From IMG/VR virus record IMGVR_UViG_3300012211_000002: a DNA stretch of 64,000 bases; one strand, 5' to 3'. Every line of letters begins with the position of its first letter. Within the stretch, counting starts at the first letter, position 1. The translations under genes were made by a program, and so were the position numbers. Source of the DNA: a virus. The notes under the pieces are model-generated. The model saw only the letters and a program-made list of their open reading frames with translations, ran no database searches and was not told the DNA's origin. Shown piece after piece: positions 1 through 6,359 of the stretch.

Positions 1-1278
1 AATGCCTTCGTAAAACTGCCTCGTACGCTCTATCGTTTCGTTTCTATCCGCCGACATTCTCATGCCCATACCCATGCTACTACCACCACCCATACCCGCA
101 TTACTTCCACCGCCACCACCAAAACCTCCCATGCCAGCTCCCTGAGAGGCTGCCCCACCCGCTTTACCAACCGCTGCCGCTGTGATAATCGCTAACTGAC
201 CCATTGTCAACTTGCCCCAACCACCCGGCAAGGGAGGGCCTATCTGCATTCTGTCTCGAATTTCATCCGGCGTAATGGCGTTGGTAGAATACAGCTGCTT
301 CGTCAACATTACCTGCACCATTTCATCCGGGTCTTCCAGGCCAACAAACTCAAATTTCAACTCCTTCCACCCCAGAGTTCTGTGCAAAATCAATCTGGTA
401 ATGGATTCTTCTATCTTCCTGGCTGCCGGGACTACTGCGCTATTGAAGTCCGCCTCGGCCATAACGGTCGCTGTCGATCTATTCGTCTGCCGCTCCAATC
501 CCAATGCCATCGGAGACAGTTCAAAGGCCGCCGCCATGATCCGAATCAAAAACTCTTGCCACTCCAACAGCAAATCTTGTGGGGTCACCGGATTCACTTC
601 TACTACATCCGGCTTGGGCAGCCCCGCCATCAAACTGACTTTGGCTTGCCCCTCCGCCTCATTCTGAATGTGCCTTCTCACCGTCTCCATATGGCCCGGG
701 GGAACATTCGTCGCCCACCACAACCAGGTCTTGTGAATCTGGTCGGCACCAGCCCTTGCGGACATATCTTGAGCACCGAGAAAAGCATTGGCAGTGAGAA
801 AGGCGCACTCCATTCTTCCGAAACCAAATGGAGTGCTGCTCCTCACATTGTCCCTCATGTATACCAGCTCATCATCCAAAAAACTGATAATGCCGCGCTC
901 CCCCTTTAGTCCTGTCAACTGGGCGTAATGTGGGCGATCCGGAGTCGCCTCCGACCAGTCTGCATAGATCCTCACAGTCGATCCGTCTACAGGCCACATT
1001 TTTATCGGCCTTCTGTAGTCTGGGGTAATCTGGGGCTCGATCGTTCCATAGCCACCAATCAGAAAATCTTCTATGACTGCTTCCATCAACGTCCGCCACG
1101 AGTCTGTCAGATTCGGATGATTTAGGCAATCCTCTGCTACCTTTACTTTCTTCAGCAACTCTGGATCTCCATCGTCATAATCATCTGAGATCGACACCCG
1201 CCACTTCAGACTAAGAATTGCATTCTTGACTATGTTCAGAGCACGCCTAGGGATAGGAGTTTCTGTAAATCTCCGGAG
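1..1278 (-). CDS. Phage portal protein, main body (3' end beyond window edge; absent from ORF track)
   Basis: Manual translation gives 426 codons with no stop from 1278 to 1: LRRFTETPIPRRALNIVKNAILSLKWRV...DFLIGGYG...WPVDGSTVRI...PFGFGRME...FLIRIMAAAFELSPMALG...AITPDEIR, HK97-type portal motifs, then a Gly/Met/Ser-rich linker. Confidence 0.9.
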
Positions 1279-1283
1279 TCAAA

Positions 1284-1437
1284 GGTTGTAGGGCGTGTTC
1301 TTCAAAATTGGCTGGTTGGACGTCTTAACCGGTGTAGGCTATTGCCACACCAGCACGCTGGACCTGTGCCGTGATTCGTGGCGCCTACACCAGTTTTACG
1401 CCTCCCCAACTGCTTTTGAAGAGCACGCTCTACAACC
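1284..1437 (-). repeat. Imperfect inverted repeat (55/56-nt arms) spanning the intein C-terminal junction
   Basis: Arms 1383-1437 and 1284-1339 are reverse complements; outer 24 bp pair 22/24, inner 13 bp pair fully with one G-U; extra inner helix GCCAC/GTGGC leaves a 4-nt AATA bulge (1340-1343). Confidence 0.95.
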
Positions 1438-2873
1438 AGTGCCCTCCTTATGCTGCTAGAGTAAACTCGCCTAACGTAAACTGTGCCGTTTGGAACTGAC
1501 GGGCAATAAACGTAACCTTTGTATTGCTCCACTTCTGGTCTGCTAACGCTTGCAAAAGACTTCCTGTGAACTCGAATTACATACGTAGGCGCTGATGGCC
1601 GACCAACATCCGCTGTAGTACCTTTTCTATTCTTTTGAGATATGGAGGCTGAACCACCGGTCTTCTGCGCAAGCTCAAGGATATCTTCCGCTAACTTTTT
1701 ACTAGCCGTACCACCTTCTTGAAAGGGACCCGCTCCTGTTCTAAAGTAGTAAACATTGCCATCTCCCATCCAATACCACTTCAACAAAATCTTAAGATAC
1801 TTCGGTGGAAGTTCTTTCACCCATTCTGGGATGTACTTCGTATGACTATTTCCAAGAGGACTTAGCTCTTGCCACAGGGATTTAACGCCACATGCCCAAC
1901 CATGCCCATCTTTCGAAAAAGAGAATGGTAGCTTAGCCAAAAGCTTCTCGATCTCTTTATAATGTATGCTACTCGACTTCTGTGAAATTCTCACACGATA
2001 CTTCGTACTACTGCTGGGAATTCCTGTAGGCAAGCTCACTAAGGCTTGCTGGTCCGCACTGGCTGCCATTGCTTGAACGAATAAGGATCTTTTATCCTTA
2101 TAATCATGCTTTCGCATGCCATAGTGAGCTCCCTCTGTTGACCCTTCTGCCAAAAATAGGCCTAAAAAAGCAACCCAATCTTCCAGTGGAACTTCATAGG
2201 ATTTCAAATTATGAGCGAACTTTGGAATCGTTTTTGGCTTGATGGGAACTTTCGTCCCGAAAGAAGGCAATTTCCCCACCCAGTTAGAAGTCAGAGGGAT
2301 TTCAAAACGTTCGTGAGATGTAGACCAGTCTTTCGTATCTCCTAAATCAAGCAGCTTATCTGCTCTAACAAAGCCAACTTCTCCAAAAGAGTCTTTACCT
2401 CCTCTAACAACTTTACGCCCTAGCATTCTATGATTCGGAGTTACCATCAAATCCACACCCAAATTCTTAAAATGTAGAACTGGACCTTCATAGTAAGACT
2501 TTGAAATTCTAGTCGCTTGCTGCCATTGAAACTCTCCTTTGTCACTCCTCGTGGCAAACCAATCTTCCTTCTTCATCTCCTCAACTGGAATCCAACCATG
2601 TTGTTTTGTTAGTATTAGTGTTGATTTAGTATAACATTCAGGCACGTATGGGAACGCCCAACTGCGGCGACCAATTATCGGAAACTGACCGGCCTTCACC
2701 GCTTGGATTTCTTTCGCCTGCTCCGACTTCTTCTGCACCCACATGTTCACAGGAGTCTGTGCCAGCTCCTGAGCATGGATCATCTGCAAAGATTTCACAA
2801 CTTCCCGTGCTCTAAAATAACGAAAGACCCTTGCTTGAATTTGGTTATGCAACCGAAGTAGGAATGCCCACAT
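1302..2873 (-). CDS. Portal N-terminal segment fused to a LAGLIDADG intein; ORF stops 12 codons after the intein end
   Basis: N-extein ...GRRSWAFPYVPE followed by intein motifs; portal-like sequence resumes in another frame (PTPVKTSNQPILKNTPYNL*LRRFTETP). Confidence 0.8.
   Translation of the reverse strand: MWAFLLRLHNQIQARVFRYFRAREVVKSLQMIHAQELAQTPVNMWVQKKSEQAKEIQAVKAGQFPIIGRRSWAFPYVPECYTKSTLILTKQHGWIPVEEMKKEDWFATRSDKGEFQWQQATRISKSYYEGPVLHFKNLGVDLMVTPNHRMLGRKVVRGGKDSFGEVGFVRADKLLDLGDTKDWSTSHERFEIPLTSNWVGKLPSFGTKVPIKPKTIPKFAHNLKSYEVPLEDWVAFLGLFLAEGSTEGAHYGMRKHDYKDKRSLFVQAMAASADQQALVSLPTGIPSSSTKYRVRISQKSSSIHYKEIEKLLAKLPFSFSKDGHGWACGVKSLWQELSPLGNSHTKYIPEWVKELPPKYLKILLKWYWMGDGNVYYFRTGAGPFQEGGTASKKLAEDILELAQKTGGSASISQKNRKGTTADVGRPSAPTYVIRVHRKSFASVSRPEVEQYKGYVYCPSVPNGTVYVRRVYSSSIRRALVVERALQKQLGRRKTGVGATNHGTGPACWCGNSLHRLRRPTSQF
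1341..2636 (-). mobile_element. Intein with LAGLIDADG homing endonuclease (432 aa)
   Basis: Block A CYTKSTLILT, block B VTPNHRM, LAGLIDADG motifs FLGLFLAEG and YWMGDG, block F VYCPSVPNGTVYVRR, block G CWCGN followed by Ser. Confidence 0.9.
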
Positions 2874-2880
2874 GGGCCAA

Positions 2881-2909
2881 ATTATAGAGAAAAAAGAGAG
2901 AGGTCGTAA
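2881..2909 (-). promoter_or_regulatory. Putative promoter for the portal gene (possibly leaderless)
   Basis: TATAAT at 2886-2881, 7 nt before the ATG at 2873; weak -35 (TTACGA) at 17-nt spacing. Confidence 0.4.
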
Positions 2910-4547
2910 GATGTTGCCCTAGTTATCCAATTAGGCGGAAGCAGGCATACTTACATAAAATTTCTTATGCCGGGAGAATCGTGACTCAGAGAGGGCGATC
3001 TAATACGGAGAATGGGGACGAAAAGGCGGGCCAGGAACGATCTTTACTGTGGGGGTGTGTGGAAAGACCGGAAATTCGCCAACTTAGTGTAGTCCATTCA
3101 TTACAAAGAAGTTACTACAGATAAAGGAGAACCAACAACTAAAGCCTTTGGAATAAGTATGTTAGAAGGAATGTAAAACCAGGGAGAGGTACCACGGAAA
3201 GCCACGACTACTGCTCAGCGTAGAGTTGCCTTTTCATTTCTTCTACTAACACTTCTCTATCCACTGCTTCCTTTTCTTCAACCAATCTTCACACTCTGCC
3301 TTACCACGATCCCGGTCCATAAAGTATCTCGGCCAACCATCCGCTGAATCCAACCACAGCCGAATAGGATCTCCACCCAGCTTCGTCTTCACGTAAGCTA
3401 TCACACTGCCACGATCACAATAGCGAGGTCTCGGCTGCATTTGAATTACGCAATCCAACCCCTCTATCTCCTCATATCCATCTTTCTGAATCCAATGACT
3501 CATCACTCTACCTCCATTTCTTTTCTAATCCTAAATTTTACTTCCCAGTGTCTTCCCCGCGTAAACCCTTCTTTGTCCGCTGCCACGACTGGGGCGTCCA
3601 CTTCGCCTTGCTTGTAGAGGCGCGTAGTCATGATTTACCTTCGCGCAGATCATTAAGCACTTCTAAAAACAGGCCAAATGCCAAACCAGCAGCAACACTG
3701 TGCATCCAGAATCCAAAGCAGAATGCACCTAAAGGAACTGAAAGAAAGGCTCGCGTTCTAGCAGCTTTGCTTGGTTCGCTCATTTCATCTTCTCCAGTTT
3801 CACAATTACTAATCCCAATTTTCCCTTACAAAATTTATCACGAATAGCACCAAACATATCACTACCACGATATAAATAATTCTCATAGTTTCTCCAGTTC
3901 CGCACGGGCTTGGGCGAGCGAGGATTCTAGTTTAGCAACGTATCTATCAGCTAATTTCGATGGTGCGTGGTCGTCAAAACCATCTTTTATCTGTTCTTGC
4001 ATCCATCGAGCCACTTCTATTCGTGCCTCCGCTTCCTTCACCTTCACGTAAAGGTCGATCAGGGCCGCACTTGAGTCTATCTTCCAGCCGCCGAAAGTGG
4101 CTGCATCCCAATACCTTCTAGCAACAGCTTCAGCTAACTCTCGGCTCGTCTCTGGCGGCTTGGTCATTTGGGGCACTCCCTCCACGCTAGACCACAGAAT
4201 CCTTGAGTCACCAACATAACCCATATCTTCTGCATCGTTACCACTCATATCTACCCTCCGATTTCTTACTTGCCATACAATTTCCTGTGTCTGTCGTACT
4301 CCCGCACTGTCAAATACTTCCCTCGCAAATAGGTTCCCACGCAATCCAAAAACCACTTGTTGCAACCTTGTAAACCACCATTCTCTTCCAACATAGATGC
4401 TATCAACCACTCTGGCTCTGCCCGATTTCTTAAGCACTGTCTGCCATAAGCAAATGAAATCGGAGCGATGGAAGACGCTACTGCTACAGCACGTTCCTTC
4501 CTACATACTTCACAAGTCAAATCACCCATCCACATGTGAATCCTCCA

Positions 4548-5015
4548 CTAATTCCAATTTTGAAACATCTCCGAAGTATCCTTCTTTTCTTTCACCTGCT
4601 CAAACTGAATCTTTCCATTCACCTTCTTATAAATGCAAGTCAGCCCCCAAGCCTCTTCCCCCCGTACCCCCGTCCCCGCAAAAACCACAATCGCTTCTTC
4701 TGCTTTTGGATCTTTCACCAACTGACCAGGTATGTACTCGGCCACTAAAGCTTCCGCTTCTTCCTTAGTTTTAGCCGGCAGCATCTTCATGTAAGTATCA
4801 TTGATTGTGATACAAGCCAACGCTTTCTTCTCTCTCGCCAAGGCCGCCACTTGGCTATAAGCATCTTCTTTTTCTTCTTCGTTCTCAAAACACAATTCCA
4901 CCAATGACAACTCTGCTCCAACGATTATCACTACTGGGGTGAGATAGCCATCTTTAACCAAAAGCTCCTTGGCTTTCTCCATATACTCCCGAGCCATTTT
5001 TCTCAAGTCTAACAT
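4548..5015 (-). CDS. Hypothetical protein, paralog of 16350-16817
   Basis: Shared motifs L.KDG.L.P, KD.AY..(V/I)A..A(R/K)E.KA.ACI.INDxYMK, PG.L..DPKAEEAI. Confidence 0.75.
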   Translation of the reverse strand: MLDLRKMAREYMEKAKELLVKDGYLTPVVIIVGAELSLVELCFENEEEKEDAYSQVAALAREKKALACITINDTYMKMLPAKTKEEAEALVAEYIPGQLVKDPKAEEAIVVFAGTGVRGEEAWGLTCIYKKVNGKIQFEQVKEKKDTSEMFQNWN

Positions 5016-5981
5016 ACTTTTCTTTTCCTTTCTTTTCTTGTTCTAACTTCTTCCCATTACCTTTATGCGTGACGAGAAATCTTAAAGTAAGCTGCCCAAA
5101 TCTCACTTCTTAAACTACGGTTGTTCAACGTCGGTCCAAAGGTGTTCAAGGCCCTCGTCAGAGAGACTATGCGACCCTTTACCTTACTAAACTGATCTAT
5201 CGGATTACAACGTGCTAATCCGCCTCCACGAAAATTCCCATCTGGATTATGAGCGCAATCTTTCACTGCACACTTGCCCTCATGAAACACACAACTCGTT
5301 AGCCATTGCCCATAGACATCATGCTGATGACTGAAATGCGCCGAATACTGCTTTCCATCATTCAATTCTAAAAGCATGTCTCCTCCAATCTTATTCTTTA
5401 AAACTGTTACGGCAATCGACCAAGCCTGTCCAAAGCAATCATTTCTTCGATTTTAATAAGGGTTTCCCAAATCCAAACCAAATGGCACCATGCTTTAATC
5501 GCAAGATACAGTTGCAGAGCCACAAACATAAAAGAGACCACCACAGTAATAACTCCTCCAGAAAAATAGGCTATAACGCCTATCTGCAAAAGGCCAAAAA
5601 AGATGGAAATGAGAACATGATACCAAGTGATACAACGTAAATCCTGCAGTTTGCCGCGGATCTCGACTAATTCCGATCTAGCCCGCAATTCCAATTCAAC
5701 GACTATCAATGCAGCTCCCTTCTTCTATACTAAGCTCTAAATGAGTATCCTAAACGTCCCCATTCAACTTCATCTGCTTCGTCCTGAATGCCAAAGCTCT
5801 CCGCCTCAGGGACTCCGCTATCTCACCTCGAAAGCACTTACGTTTTATTCCATGCATTCTATTTGTGAATTCCAATGCACAAATGCCACATAATCTGAAA
5901 CAACCTGCTGAGGAAGTCAGCACGCTAACCAAATCACCTGGGTAATCTATCTTGCACTCTTCGCACTTCATAGACGCTCCT

Positions 5982-6359
5982 TCATTTATGACTAATAACT
6001 TTCACTGGCACTCCTGCCTTTCTAGCCCTCTCCACCATATCTTTCGTACCTTTGGAATGATCTAAGTCGTCATGGAAAGCCAGAATGAGCTCTGGCTTCC
6101 CCTCCTCCAACATCTGCTTGTTCCGGAGTGGGCCAGCCGCCTTTCCGTACTTCTCCCACAGTGCCGGAAAACCAGAATACTTGAGACCGAGTCTGCTCGA
6201 AACTTTCTTAGCAAGACTGTCCGCCCCCTCTGCTTCTCCCGAAATAATGAGTGAAATCTTGCCCGCGCCCGTGTTCCCTTCCAGATGCAGACGCAGGATA
6301 CTTTTCTCAATCAGCTCTTCGTCTGCCCAATTCCTGTCCCCGCAAACCAGAACTCTCAT
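5982..6359 (-). CDS. SLOG family (YspA/DUF2493-like) nucleotide-binding protein
   Basis: MRVLVCGDRNW...ISGEAEGADSLA...GKAAGPLRNKQML...SKGTKDMVERARKAGVPV. Confidence 0.85.
   Translation of the reverse strand: MRVLVCGDRNWADEELIEKSILRLHLEGNTGAGKISLIISGEAEGADSLAKKVSSRLGLKYSGFPALWEKYGKAAGPLRNKQMLEEGKPELILAFHDDLDHSKGTKDMVERARKAGVPVKVISHK

Follow-up and report, generated by a model that had tools for sequence, protein, structure and literature searches.

Why should an intein that interrupts the essential portal gene of a phage carry, between two blocks of its own splicing domain, an additional segment complementary to the portal sequence behind it, and why does that portal sequence leave its reading frame so soon after the intein ends? 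The question is raised by a 64,000-nt stretch of soil phage DNA (IMG/VR record IMGVR_UViG_3300012211_000002; the whole 64-kb stretch is referred to as the window), in which all genes lie on the minus strand and which has the appearance of a large phage (GC content 47%). We favour, with moderate confidence, the reading that the additional segment, a 32-codon insert, is a dual-coded stimulator of short translational bypass. It is written in the intein reading frame, and its RNA would help the ribosome over two short coding gaps in the portal gene.

The open reading frame (ORF) at positions 1302-2873 (minus strand, as are all window features described here) encodes the first 79 residues of the portal protein (N-extein, 2637-2873, ending ..FPYVPE; 89% identity to the intein-less portal P0011), a 432-residue intein (1341-2636), and 12 further residues followed by TGA. 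The rest of the portal (RRFTETP..., 1-1275; 89% identity to P0011 by tblastn) stays open from position 1278 up to the window edge, in a frame that differs from that of the ORF, and it matches Pfam Phage_portal (5.5e-27). No intact second portal gene was found within the window, and blastn with window positions 1-3000 as query matched none of 50,697 phage records. The intein is inserted in frame at a conserved site that is uninterrupted in ~45 intein-less portal alleles (..PYIPE-ALHRL..). Its landmarks include Cys1 (codon at 2634-2636), block B TPNH, two LAGLIDADG motifs, block F, and block G with the C-terminal end ..CWCGN, after which Ser stands at position +1. The AlphaFold2 (AF2) model reached a mean predicted local distance difference test score (pLDDT) of 80.9 and a predicted template modelling score (pTM) of 0.84, and its top Foldseek matches in the PDB were the inteins TliVMA (7qsu, E 1.7e-17), PhoVMA, PI-SceI, and PI-PfuI (E 1.7e-17 to 7.8e-9). 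The Pfam matches to Hint_2 and LAGLIDADG_3 were below threshold. Judged by sequence and fold, the intervening sequence is a genuine Hint plus LAGLIDADG intein, and splicing activity is predicted for it. The N-extein has a Gly at 2670-2672, where all other portals of the family have Asp (D68 of P0011), and a Val at an I/L/M position two residues ahead of the intein.

In the intein-less portals, the residues around the intein site form a nearly invariant motif that runs without interruption (..PYIPE-ALHRLNQPILKNTPYNLRRFTETP.., ~45 loci). In the window, the C-extein part of this motif is broken twice. The first five C-extein codons (+1 to +5, SLHRL; 1326-1340), which end with the putative take-off codon UUA (1326-1328), are followed by an 8-nt micro-insert (1318-1325) that shifts the frame, contains no stop, and is absent from the ~45 intein-less alleles. 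The next portal segment, NQPILKNTPYNL (1282-1317), is stranded in the -1 frame relative to the intein ORF. It ends in PYNL and is followed by a second micro-insert, TGA plus CTC (1276-1281), which is in frame, is likewise absent from intein-less portals, and is flanked by CUU and CUC. The 12 stranded codons show 6-11 synonymous and 0 non-synonymous differences from intein-less portals, so that both 1318-1325 and 1276-1281 have the properties expected of bypassed gaps, i.e., absence from homologues and flanks that keep their protein sequence. Comparable gaps were also seen in related alleles, with an 8-nt gap of like type at the site of the first gap (L068) and a 9-nt version at the site of the second (L004).

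Other ways of decoding across these gaps were considered and rejected. Reassignment of the stop codon or its suppression by a tRNA was rejected because long ORFs in the window end with TGA more often than with any other stop (29/56), the sole tRNA gene in the window is a tRNA-Pro(UGG) (41608-41682), and ordinary tRNAs were found at the loci of the relatives. Frameshifting by +1 or -1 at either gap was dismissed by reading the sequence, since there is no slippery site and the frames that would be reached are dead or replace the invariant NQPI residues. The prfB site of Escherichia coli (CUU UGA C with an upstream Shine-Dalgarno (SD) sequence) is a shifty stop at which the ribosome moves by +1, whereas a +1 shift at the window gap would lead into a dead frame. 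A promoter arising from the TTGAC-like start of several gaps was also rejected by reading, considering that the -10 matches are poor except in one relative (L001).

The insert itself lies at 1371-1466, directly 3' of the block F strand VYVRR (1467-1481). A previous reading of the letters alone (the sequence-only reading) had described a ~30-residue in-frame insert without a stop between blocks F and G, at 1377-1470, where this intein type would normally have a short turn. This description holds, with corrected boundaries: the insert comprises 32 codons in frame with no stop, and the closest inteins (P0002-P0005 and others) have 4-7 residues at the same site. It is absent from all 5431 intein homologues found in a search of 1.84 billion representatives, whose alignments stop at residue 469/470 where the insert begins; two apparent extensions past this point were spurious and consisted of the other proteins' own block G and extein. 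A protein word-index search with the C-terminal 84 residues (near and shorter lengths were also tried) recovered the window itself as the only match, and a degenerate DNA pattern for the block G/C-extein junction recovered from IMG/VR only the contig of one relative (L012) and one chance match. Thus, rather than being common in related inteins that lack complementarity to their exteins, the insert is unique, and its sole partial relative, in L012, is complementary to the C-extein there. In the AF2 model the insert is a low-confidence helix plus coil (pLDDT 44-54) that loops out between the last two Hint strands, both of which stay in place. Because it is modelled as a surface loop at this position, its cost to the protein is probably small.

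In the RNA, the insert forms the 5' strand of a near-continuous mRNA hairpin of ~64 nt per arm, the 3' strand of which is the start of the portal C-extein. The antisense arm that had been proposed from the letters was confirmed as complementary to the C-extein far above chance, with the 199-nt region folding at -93.1 kcal/mol compared with -59.1 ± 4.5 kcal/mol for shuffled sequences (z -7.5; reached by 0/200 shuffles). The region contains two inverted repeats. An outer antisense arm (1414-1437) pairs with 1284-1307 (24 nt, 92%, 22/24 positions paired) and is the 5' strand of helices that take the stranded segment as their 3' strand and end 2 nt before the TGA micro-insert. An inner antisense arm (1383-1395) pairs with 1327-1339 (13 nt, 92%), within the SLHRL codons; the resulting helix has 13 bp, a length reached in 0.4% of shuffle trials, and stops 1 nt short of the 8-nt gap. 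Each arm is preceded at 5 nt by an SD-like motif, AAGGAGG (1443-1449) for the outer arm and GGGGAGG (1401-1407) for the inner arm, with anti-SD duplex energies of -11.3 and -10.4 kcal/mol and with 1.2% and 2.2% of background windows as strong, respectively. Since each sub-helix ends at a gap and has an SD-like motif 5 nt before its arm, the insert is, in terms of its sequence, two units of SD-like motif, 5-nt spacer, and antisense arm, one for each gap. The allele L012 has the first gap only and, in a 12-codon insert, the inner unit only, which forms a 12-bp helix with its own C-extein. We note separately that, 7 nt behind the first SD-like motif, the outer arm has TTG and then TAG (1429-1449 with the motif), a minimal start-stop pair that may be a coincidence.

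We compared ten intein-bearing alleles of this portal with micro-inserts, which together hold 11 gaps of 6-10 nt with every length represented: 8 and 6 nt in the window, 10 nt in L012, 6 nt in L005, 9 nt in L001, L008, L004, and L067, 8 nt in L068, 7 nt in L069, and 6 nt in L034, where the gap lies beside a mini-intein without an endonuclease. Three of these alleles (L067, L068, and L069) were fetched afterwards through a representative search as a test of the layout of helix, SD-like motif, and gap, and five uninterrupted intein-bearing alleles (L050, L056, L063, L070, and L071) served as controls. The inteins occupy three sites within 20 codons (after W72, E79, and N91), and the micro-inserts fall at five positions in one nearly invariant 30-residue motif. 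The crowded region corresponds to portal residues 72-97 (window 1276-1340 and 2637-2660; loci L001-L071). Several of these portals (P0008, P0092, and P0098) have a second intein further downstream with no gap after it.

In 11/11 cases the gap is preceded at 0-3 nt by the end of a helix that has its 5' strand within the intein. The helix sequences, at four portal positions, are unrelated from site to site, and their architectures vary. In L005 and L069 the helix has 14 bp and a GNRA loop exactly at the splice junction (GAAA in L005), in L034 it has 10 bp and a UUCG loop, and in L068 it has 11 bp. The alleles L001, L008, and L004 have long-range stems of 10-12 bp that span ~85-100 nt, and those of L012 and the window, with 12-13 bp, enclose a structured 45-nt loop that contains block G. 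The association of a helix with the gap that it abuts gave a Fisher's combined p of 1.2e-5 over six independent sites, no comparable helix was found in the five controls (p 0.2-0.97), and the three test alleles all conformed to the layout. The sequence-only reading had regarded the insert as selected for RNA structure while also coding for protein, and this comparison supports it, in that other alleles form a helix at the same place with quite different sequences, gap-free alleles have none, and the short version in L012 pairs with its own C-extein.

The SD-like motifs follow the same pattern. Scored against the ribosome-binding site of the window's own queD gene as reference and against windows in each intein as background, an SD-like motif was found within 16 nt 5' of the helix in 11/11 cases (combined p 3e-9). 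The anti-SD duplex energies are -10.4 to -12.6 kcal/mol in eight of the 11 and -6.4 to -8.4 kcal/mol in the other three, and only 0.1-9.6% of the background windows of each allele are as strong. Several alleles spell the motif with AGG AGG, which encodes the conserved Arg-Arg of block F, a position at which the four controls that were read have mostly CGN codons, with one AGA and one AGG.

It is conceivable that none of this has a function. The adjacent C-extein could have been duplicated in inverted orientation by strand or template switching at a pre-existing short palindrome, in a portal allele that was broken beforehand and is decaying, with the hairpin as a neutral by-product. The arms of the window lend themselves to this account, in that the reverse complement of the 5' arm aligns to the 3' arm position by position, with symmetric internal loops and with both micro-inserts mirrored, and the mismatches in the arms are uncorrected. 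Moreover, an open frame across the insert is not rare by chance (expected in ~10-20% of shuffles, which were run one base out of frame). However, a functionless duplication would leave unexplained why the helices end exactly at both gap starts with an SD-like motif 5 nt before each arm, and why the same geometry recurs with unrelated sequences at 11/11 gaps and 0/5 controls. The purely synonymous differences in the stranded segment also argue against a decaying gene, as do the other genes of the 108-kb contig, which look intact, and the persistence of stop-bearing alleles in divergent lineages and several samples. On balance we consider a duplication without function unlikely.

Nonetheless, several points weigh against bypass as well and call for caution. 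The arms contain A-C mismatches and resemble an inverted duplication that has diverged, and template switching could make and homogenise such arms without selection. The Gly at the invariant D68 of the N-extein could signal a decaying allele, and this substitution fits the neutral account too. The weakest case is the first window gap, where the landing triplet is non-cognate (UUA/UCC), unlike that of L068 at the same site (UUA/UUA), and where take-off is followed by AGA, which this phage uses more than any other Arg codon, so that neither a stop nor a hungry codon is present, again as the neutral account would have it. Across the alleles, 4/11 gaps have no cognate landing codon. The 32 extra residues between blocks F and G may impair splicing, and the pLDDT of the insert is only 44-54. 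All compared sequences are metagenomic. Finally, covariation was not significant with 2-3 sequences per helix, and shuffles reached the observed score in 103/500 and 341/500 trials.

The changes that do separate relatives are consistent with maintained pairing. Pair-preserving double changes were seen twice between L001 and L008, once among L005, L067, and L069, and once, as a compensatory change, between the window and L012, and several G-U pairs have switched to G-C between the helices of relatives. Helix pairing across relatives is 95-96% in register compared with 17-50% in slid registers.

How a ribosome might treat the gaps can be approached through the codons at their borders. A stop codon stands at the start of 8/11 gaps, and the codons before the gap and at its end are cognate in 7/11. 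The second window gap combines both, with a cognate take-off/landing pair (CUU/CUC) and UGA directly after the take-off codon. Cognate pairs also occur at gaps with lengths that are not multiples of 3, namely in L068 (UUA, 5 nt, UUA; 8-nt gap) and L069 (CUA, 4 nt, CUA; 7-nt gap). Because of these lengths, readthrough cannot rescue the two gaps, and the codon pairs point to re-pairing of the peptidyl-tRNA, i.e., to a hop.

Alternatively, the helix could bring the SD-like motif close to a codon after the gap and so assemble a split ribosome-binding site. The intein ORF would then end at the stop, and the portal body would be made separately by internal initiation or re-initiation, giving a two-piece portal. 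T4 gene 38 is a known example of hairpins that shorten the distance between an SD sequence and a start codon. L004 has a GTG immediately behind the TGA, L001 has a TTG at a distance of 6 nt, and gene callers split the gene at these points. On the other hand, the triplets after most gaps are CUN, UUA, or AAY, start codons are lacking in their vicinity, and in the window the first in-frame ATG, GTG, or TTG lies 27 codons downstream. Furthermore, the six stop-bearing gaps other than that of L012 are all multiples of 3 and 7/11 gaps have cognate flanking codons, and both properties count against re-initiation because it requires neither. The split points would also fall at five places inside a nearly invariant 30-residue motif. 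We therefore regard separate initiation of the portal body as distinctly unlikely.

Returning to bypass, we infer from the arrangement of motif, helix, and gap the following course of events. With the codon before the gap in the P site, the 3' strand of the helix would be inside the ribosome and its 5' strand would be waiting outside. The helix could then re-zip at the mRNA exit and, aided by pairing of the SD-like motif with 16S rRNA, pull the message forward. The peptidyl-tRNA would slide over the gap (6-8 nt in the window, 6-10 nt across alleles) and resume in the portal frame, from CUU to CUC at the second gap. In this way an uninterrupted precursor would be made, which the intein would then splice.

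A further possibility is that the hairpin acts in some other manner, either on the RNA (processing or stability, e.g., as an RNase III site between the intein and portal messages) or on the DNA, as a palindrome that blocks cleavage by the homing endonuclease or promotes recombination. The near-continuous duplex of ~60 bp would be long enough for RNase III, and the gap of T4 gene 60 has been reported as part of a homing-endonuclease cassette (bioRxiv 10.1101/2022.08.31.505936). The inteins of the window and L012 share 34% protein identity, and the intein body of L012 is closest to that of L005 (54%), whereas only 6 positions distinguish the window from L012 across the final 62 nt of the intein and the opening C-extein codons (~90% DNA identity). 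Within this comparison (window 1362-1395 with 1326-1340 against L012:1925-1992, i.e., the intein 3' end plus the first five C-extein codons), 36 bases in a row are identical. Because the 3' ends are nearly identical in inteins so divergent in protein, this suggests a modular exchange of intein 3' ends, with the module seeming to move between inteins. This exchange might be taken in favour of a role in recombination, but the tetraloop hairpins of the other alleles, with 10-14 bp, are short and would serve RNase III poorly as substrates, and the mini-intein of L034 keeps its gap and helix without an endonuclease. Such roles would also leave the SD-like motifs and the cognate codon pairs unexplained, and we deem them very unlikely. 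A similar contrast between the 3' end and the intein body was noted in L001 and L008.

The hexamer GGGCAC in the insert (1439-1444) had also been proposed as a pairing partner for the final six bases of the N-extein, with a G-U at the end, like a P1 helix. Were it the guide arm of a group-I-like ribozyme, the interruption would be removed at the RNA level. The pairing is possible, but eight hexamers of the intein pair equally well with the N-extein end, which places it at chance level. No Rfam family was matched in window positions 1-6000 at E up to 1, and a complete intein is encoded by sequence and fold. A group I intron is thus effectively refuted, and we give the ribozyme guide scarcely any credence.

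The direct repeats noted around the insert are real as sequence but carry little weight. A 9-mer does occur at both 1481-1489 and 1364-1372; however, a 9-nt direct repeat appears in 126/1000 shuffles and is at chance level. The doubled GTTTAC is likewise present, and it belongs to what looks like an imperfect tandem copy, 15 nt long, of the VYVRR codons at the start of the insert. A mobile element with a target-site duplication was rejected, since the 9-mer repeat has p ~0.13, the relative L012 has no such repeat, excision of one repeat copy with the interval would remove the conserved VYVRR strand, and no other copy was found in the databases searched.

Short gaps have been described before in a phage head-assembly gene. 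In the large terminase gene of the Streptomyces phage Hau3, UUA codons precede two coding gaps of 10 nt (Smith et al. 2013; Antonov et al. 2023, PMC10732093), with a 5' stem-loop and a flanking SD motif proposed to support bypass of a 10-nt gap and with the junction peptide observed by mass spectrometry in E. coli (PMC10732093). The likeness to our locus extends to gaps of 7-10 nt that are absent from homologues, the occurrence of two gaps in one gene, the proposed 5' stimulators, and, at the second window gap, the cognate landing codon. It differs in that the putative stimulators here lie inside an intein and are also read as protein, that a stop codon, in place of a rare UUA, opens most gaps, that gaps of 6-10 nt occur at five positions of one motif in many alleles, and that no host-cell-cycle logic is evident. 

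T4 gene 60 offers a second comparison, with a 50-nt bypass and a MobA homing-endonuclease cassette (bioRxiv 10.1101/2022.08.31.505936). Here as there, a coding gap lies beside a homing-endonuclease element, and an SD-like element accompanies mRNA structures that include a 5' stem-loop; at the second window gap, a stop also follows the take-off codon, and the take-off and landing codons match. The gaps of the portal are, however, 6-10 nt and not 50 nt, no take-off hairpin forms around the stop, the helix being wholly 5' of the gap, and the endonuclease is borne by an intein so that the gene is not split in two. Roles for the 5' stem-loop and the SD motif have been suggested for both the gene 60 and Hau3 gaps (bioRxiv 10.1101/2022.08.31.505936; PMC10732093), and the sliding that we propose is modelled on them. 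The second window gap, with a cognate Leu codon after CUU UGA, also has the classic +6 arrangement of the laboratory 'stop-hops' of E. coli (Weiss et al. 1987, cited in PMC10732093 and bioRxiv 10.1101/2022.08.31.505936), although those are low-efficiency events in artificial constructs. As for the intein, it shares the fold and catalytic landmarks of PI-SceI, TliVMA, and PI-PfuI and differs from detected LAGLIDADG relatives in its long F/G insert.

Considering that the gaps lie in the host gene and the candidate hop signals (SD-like motifs and 5' arms) in the intein, we put forward only as a tentative possibility that the two form one co-adapted selfish cassette. If so, a phage that lost the intein but kept the gap would be left with a dead portal gene, which would amount to an addiction mechanism for the intein. 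The gaps may also shield the locus from the endonuclease of its own or a neighbouring intein, as has been proposed for MobA and gene 60, and both effects may be combined.

Natural translational bypass has only a handful of known examples, namely T4 gene 60 with its relatives, mitochondrial elements of yeast, and, as a proposal, the gaps of the Hau3 terminase. The portal family adds eleven short gaps of 6-10 nt with one compact candidate signal set (SD-like motif, helix, and gap) and with matched natural controls that lack the signals. The insert hints at a strong need for these signals, in that 32 codons would have been added to a catalytic protein domain where the codons of blocks F and G could not supply the arms. 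If confirmed, this would be the first intein carrying recoding signals for its host gene and a clean case of RNA-structure constraints shaping a protein insertion, and the alleles would provide a natural variant series for studying how a 5' helix and an SD motif drive ribosome sliding. For annotation it is a warning that "split" portal genes beside inteins may be whole.

Among the remaining observations, the mini-intein of L034 (L034:1850-2320; ~155 residues) lies at the W72 site and is accompanied by a TGA micro-insert and the 10-bp UUCG-loop hairpin. The inteins of the third site (after ..LKN) end with Gly-Arg in three alleles (CGT, CGA, and CGC) or with Gly-Gln in place of the canonical Asn (L004:5588-5590, L056:2098-2100, L070:1797-1799, and L063:3998-4000). 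Because Arg cannot cyclise, those ending with Gly-Arg would either not splice normally or use another route. Elsewhere in the window, queD holds a second such gap of this phage, with 4 extra bases starting with TGA inside its His-Gly-His motif (35541-35544), and a hairpin is predicted to end at the preceding codon.

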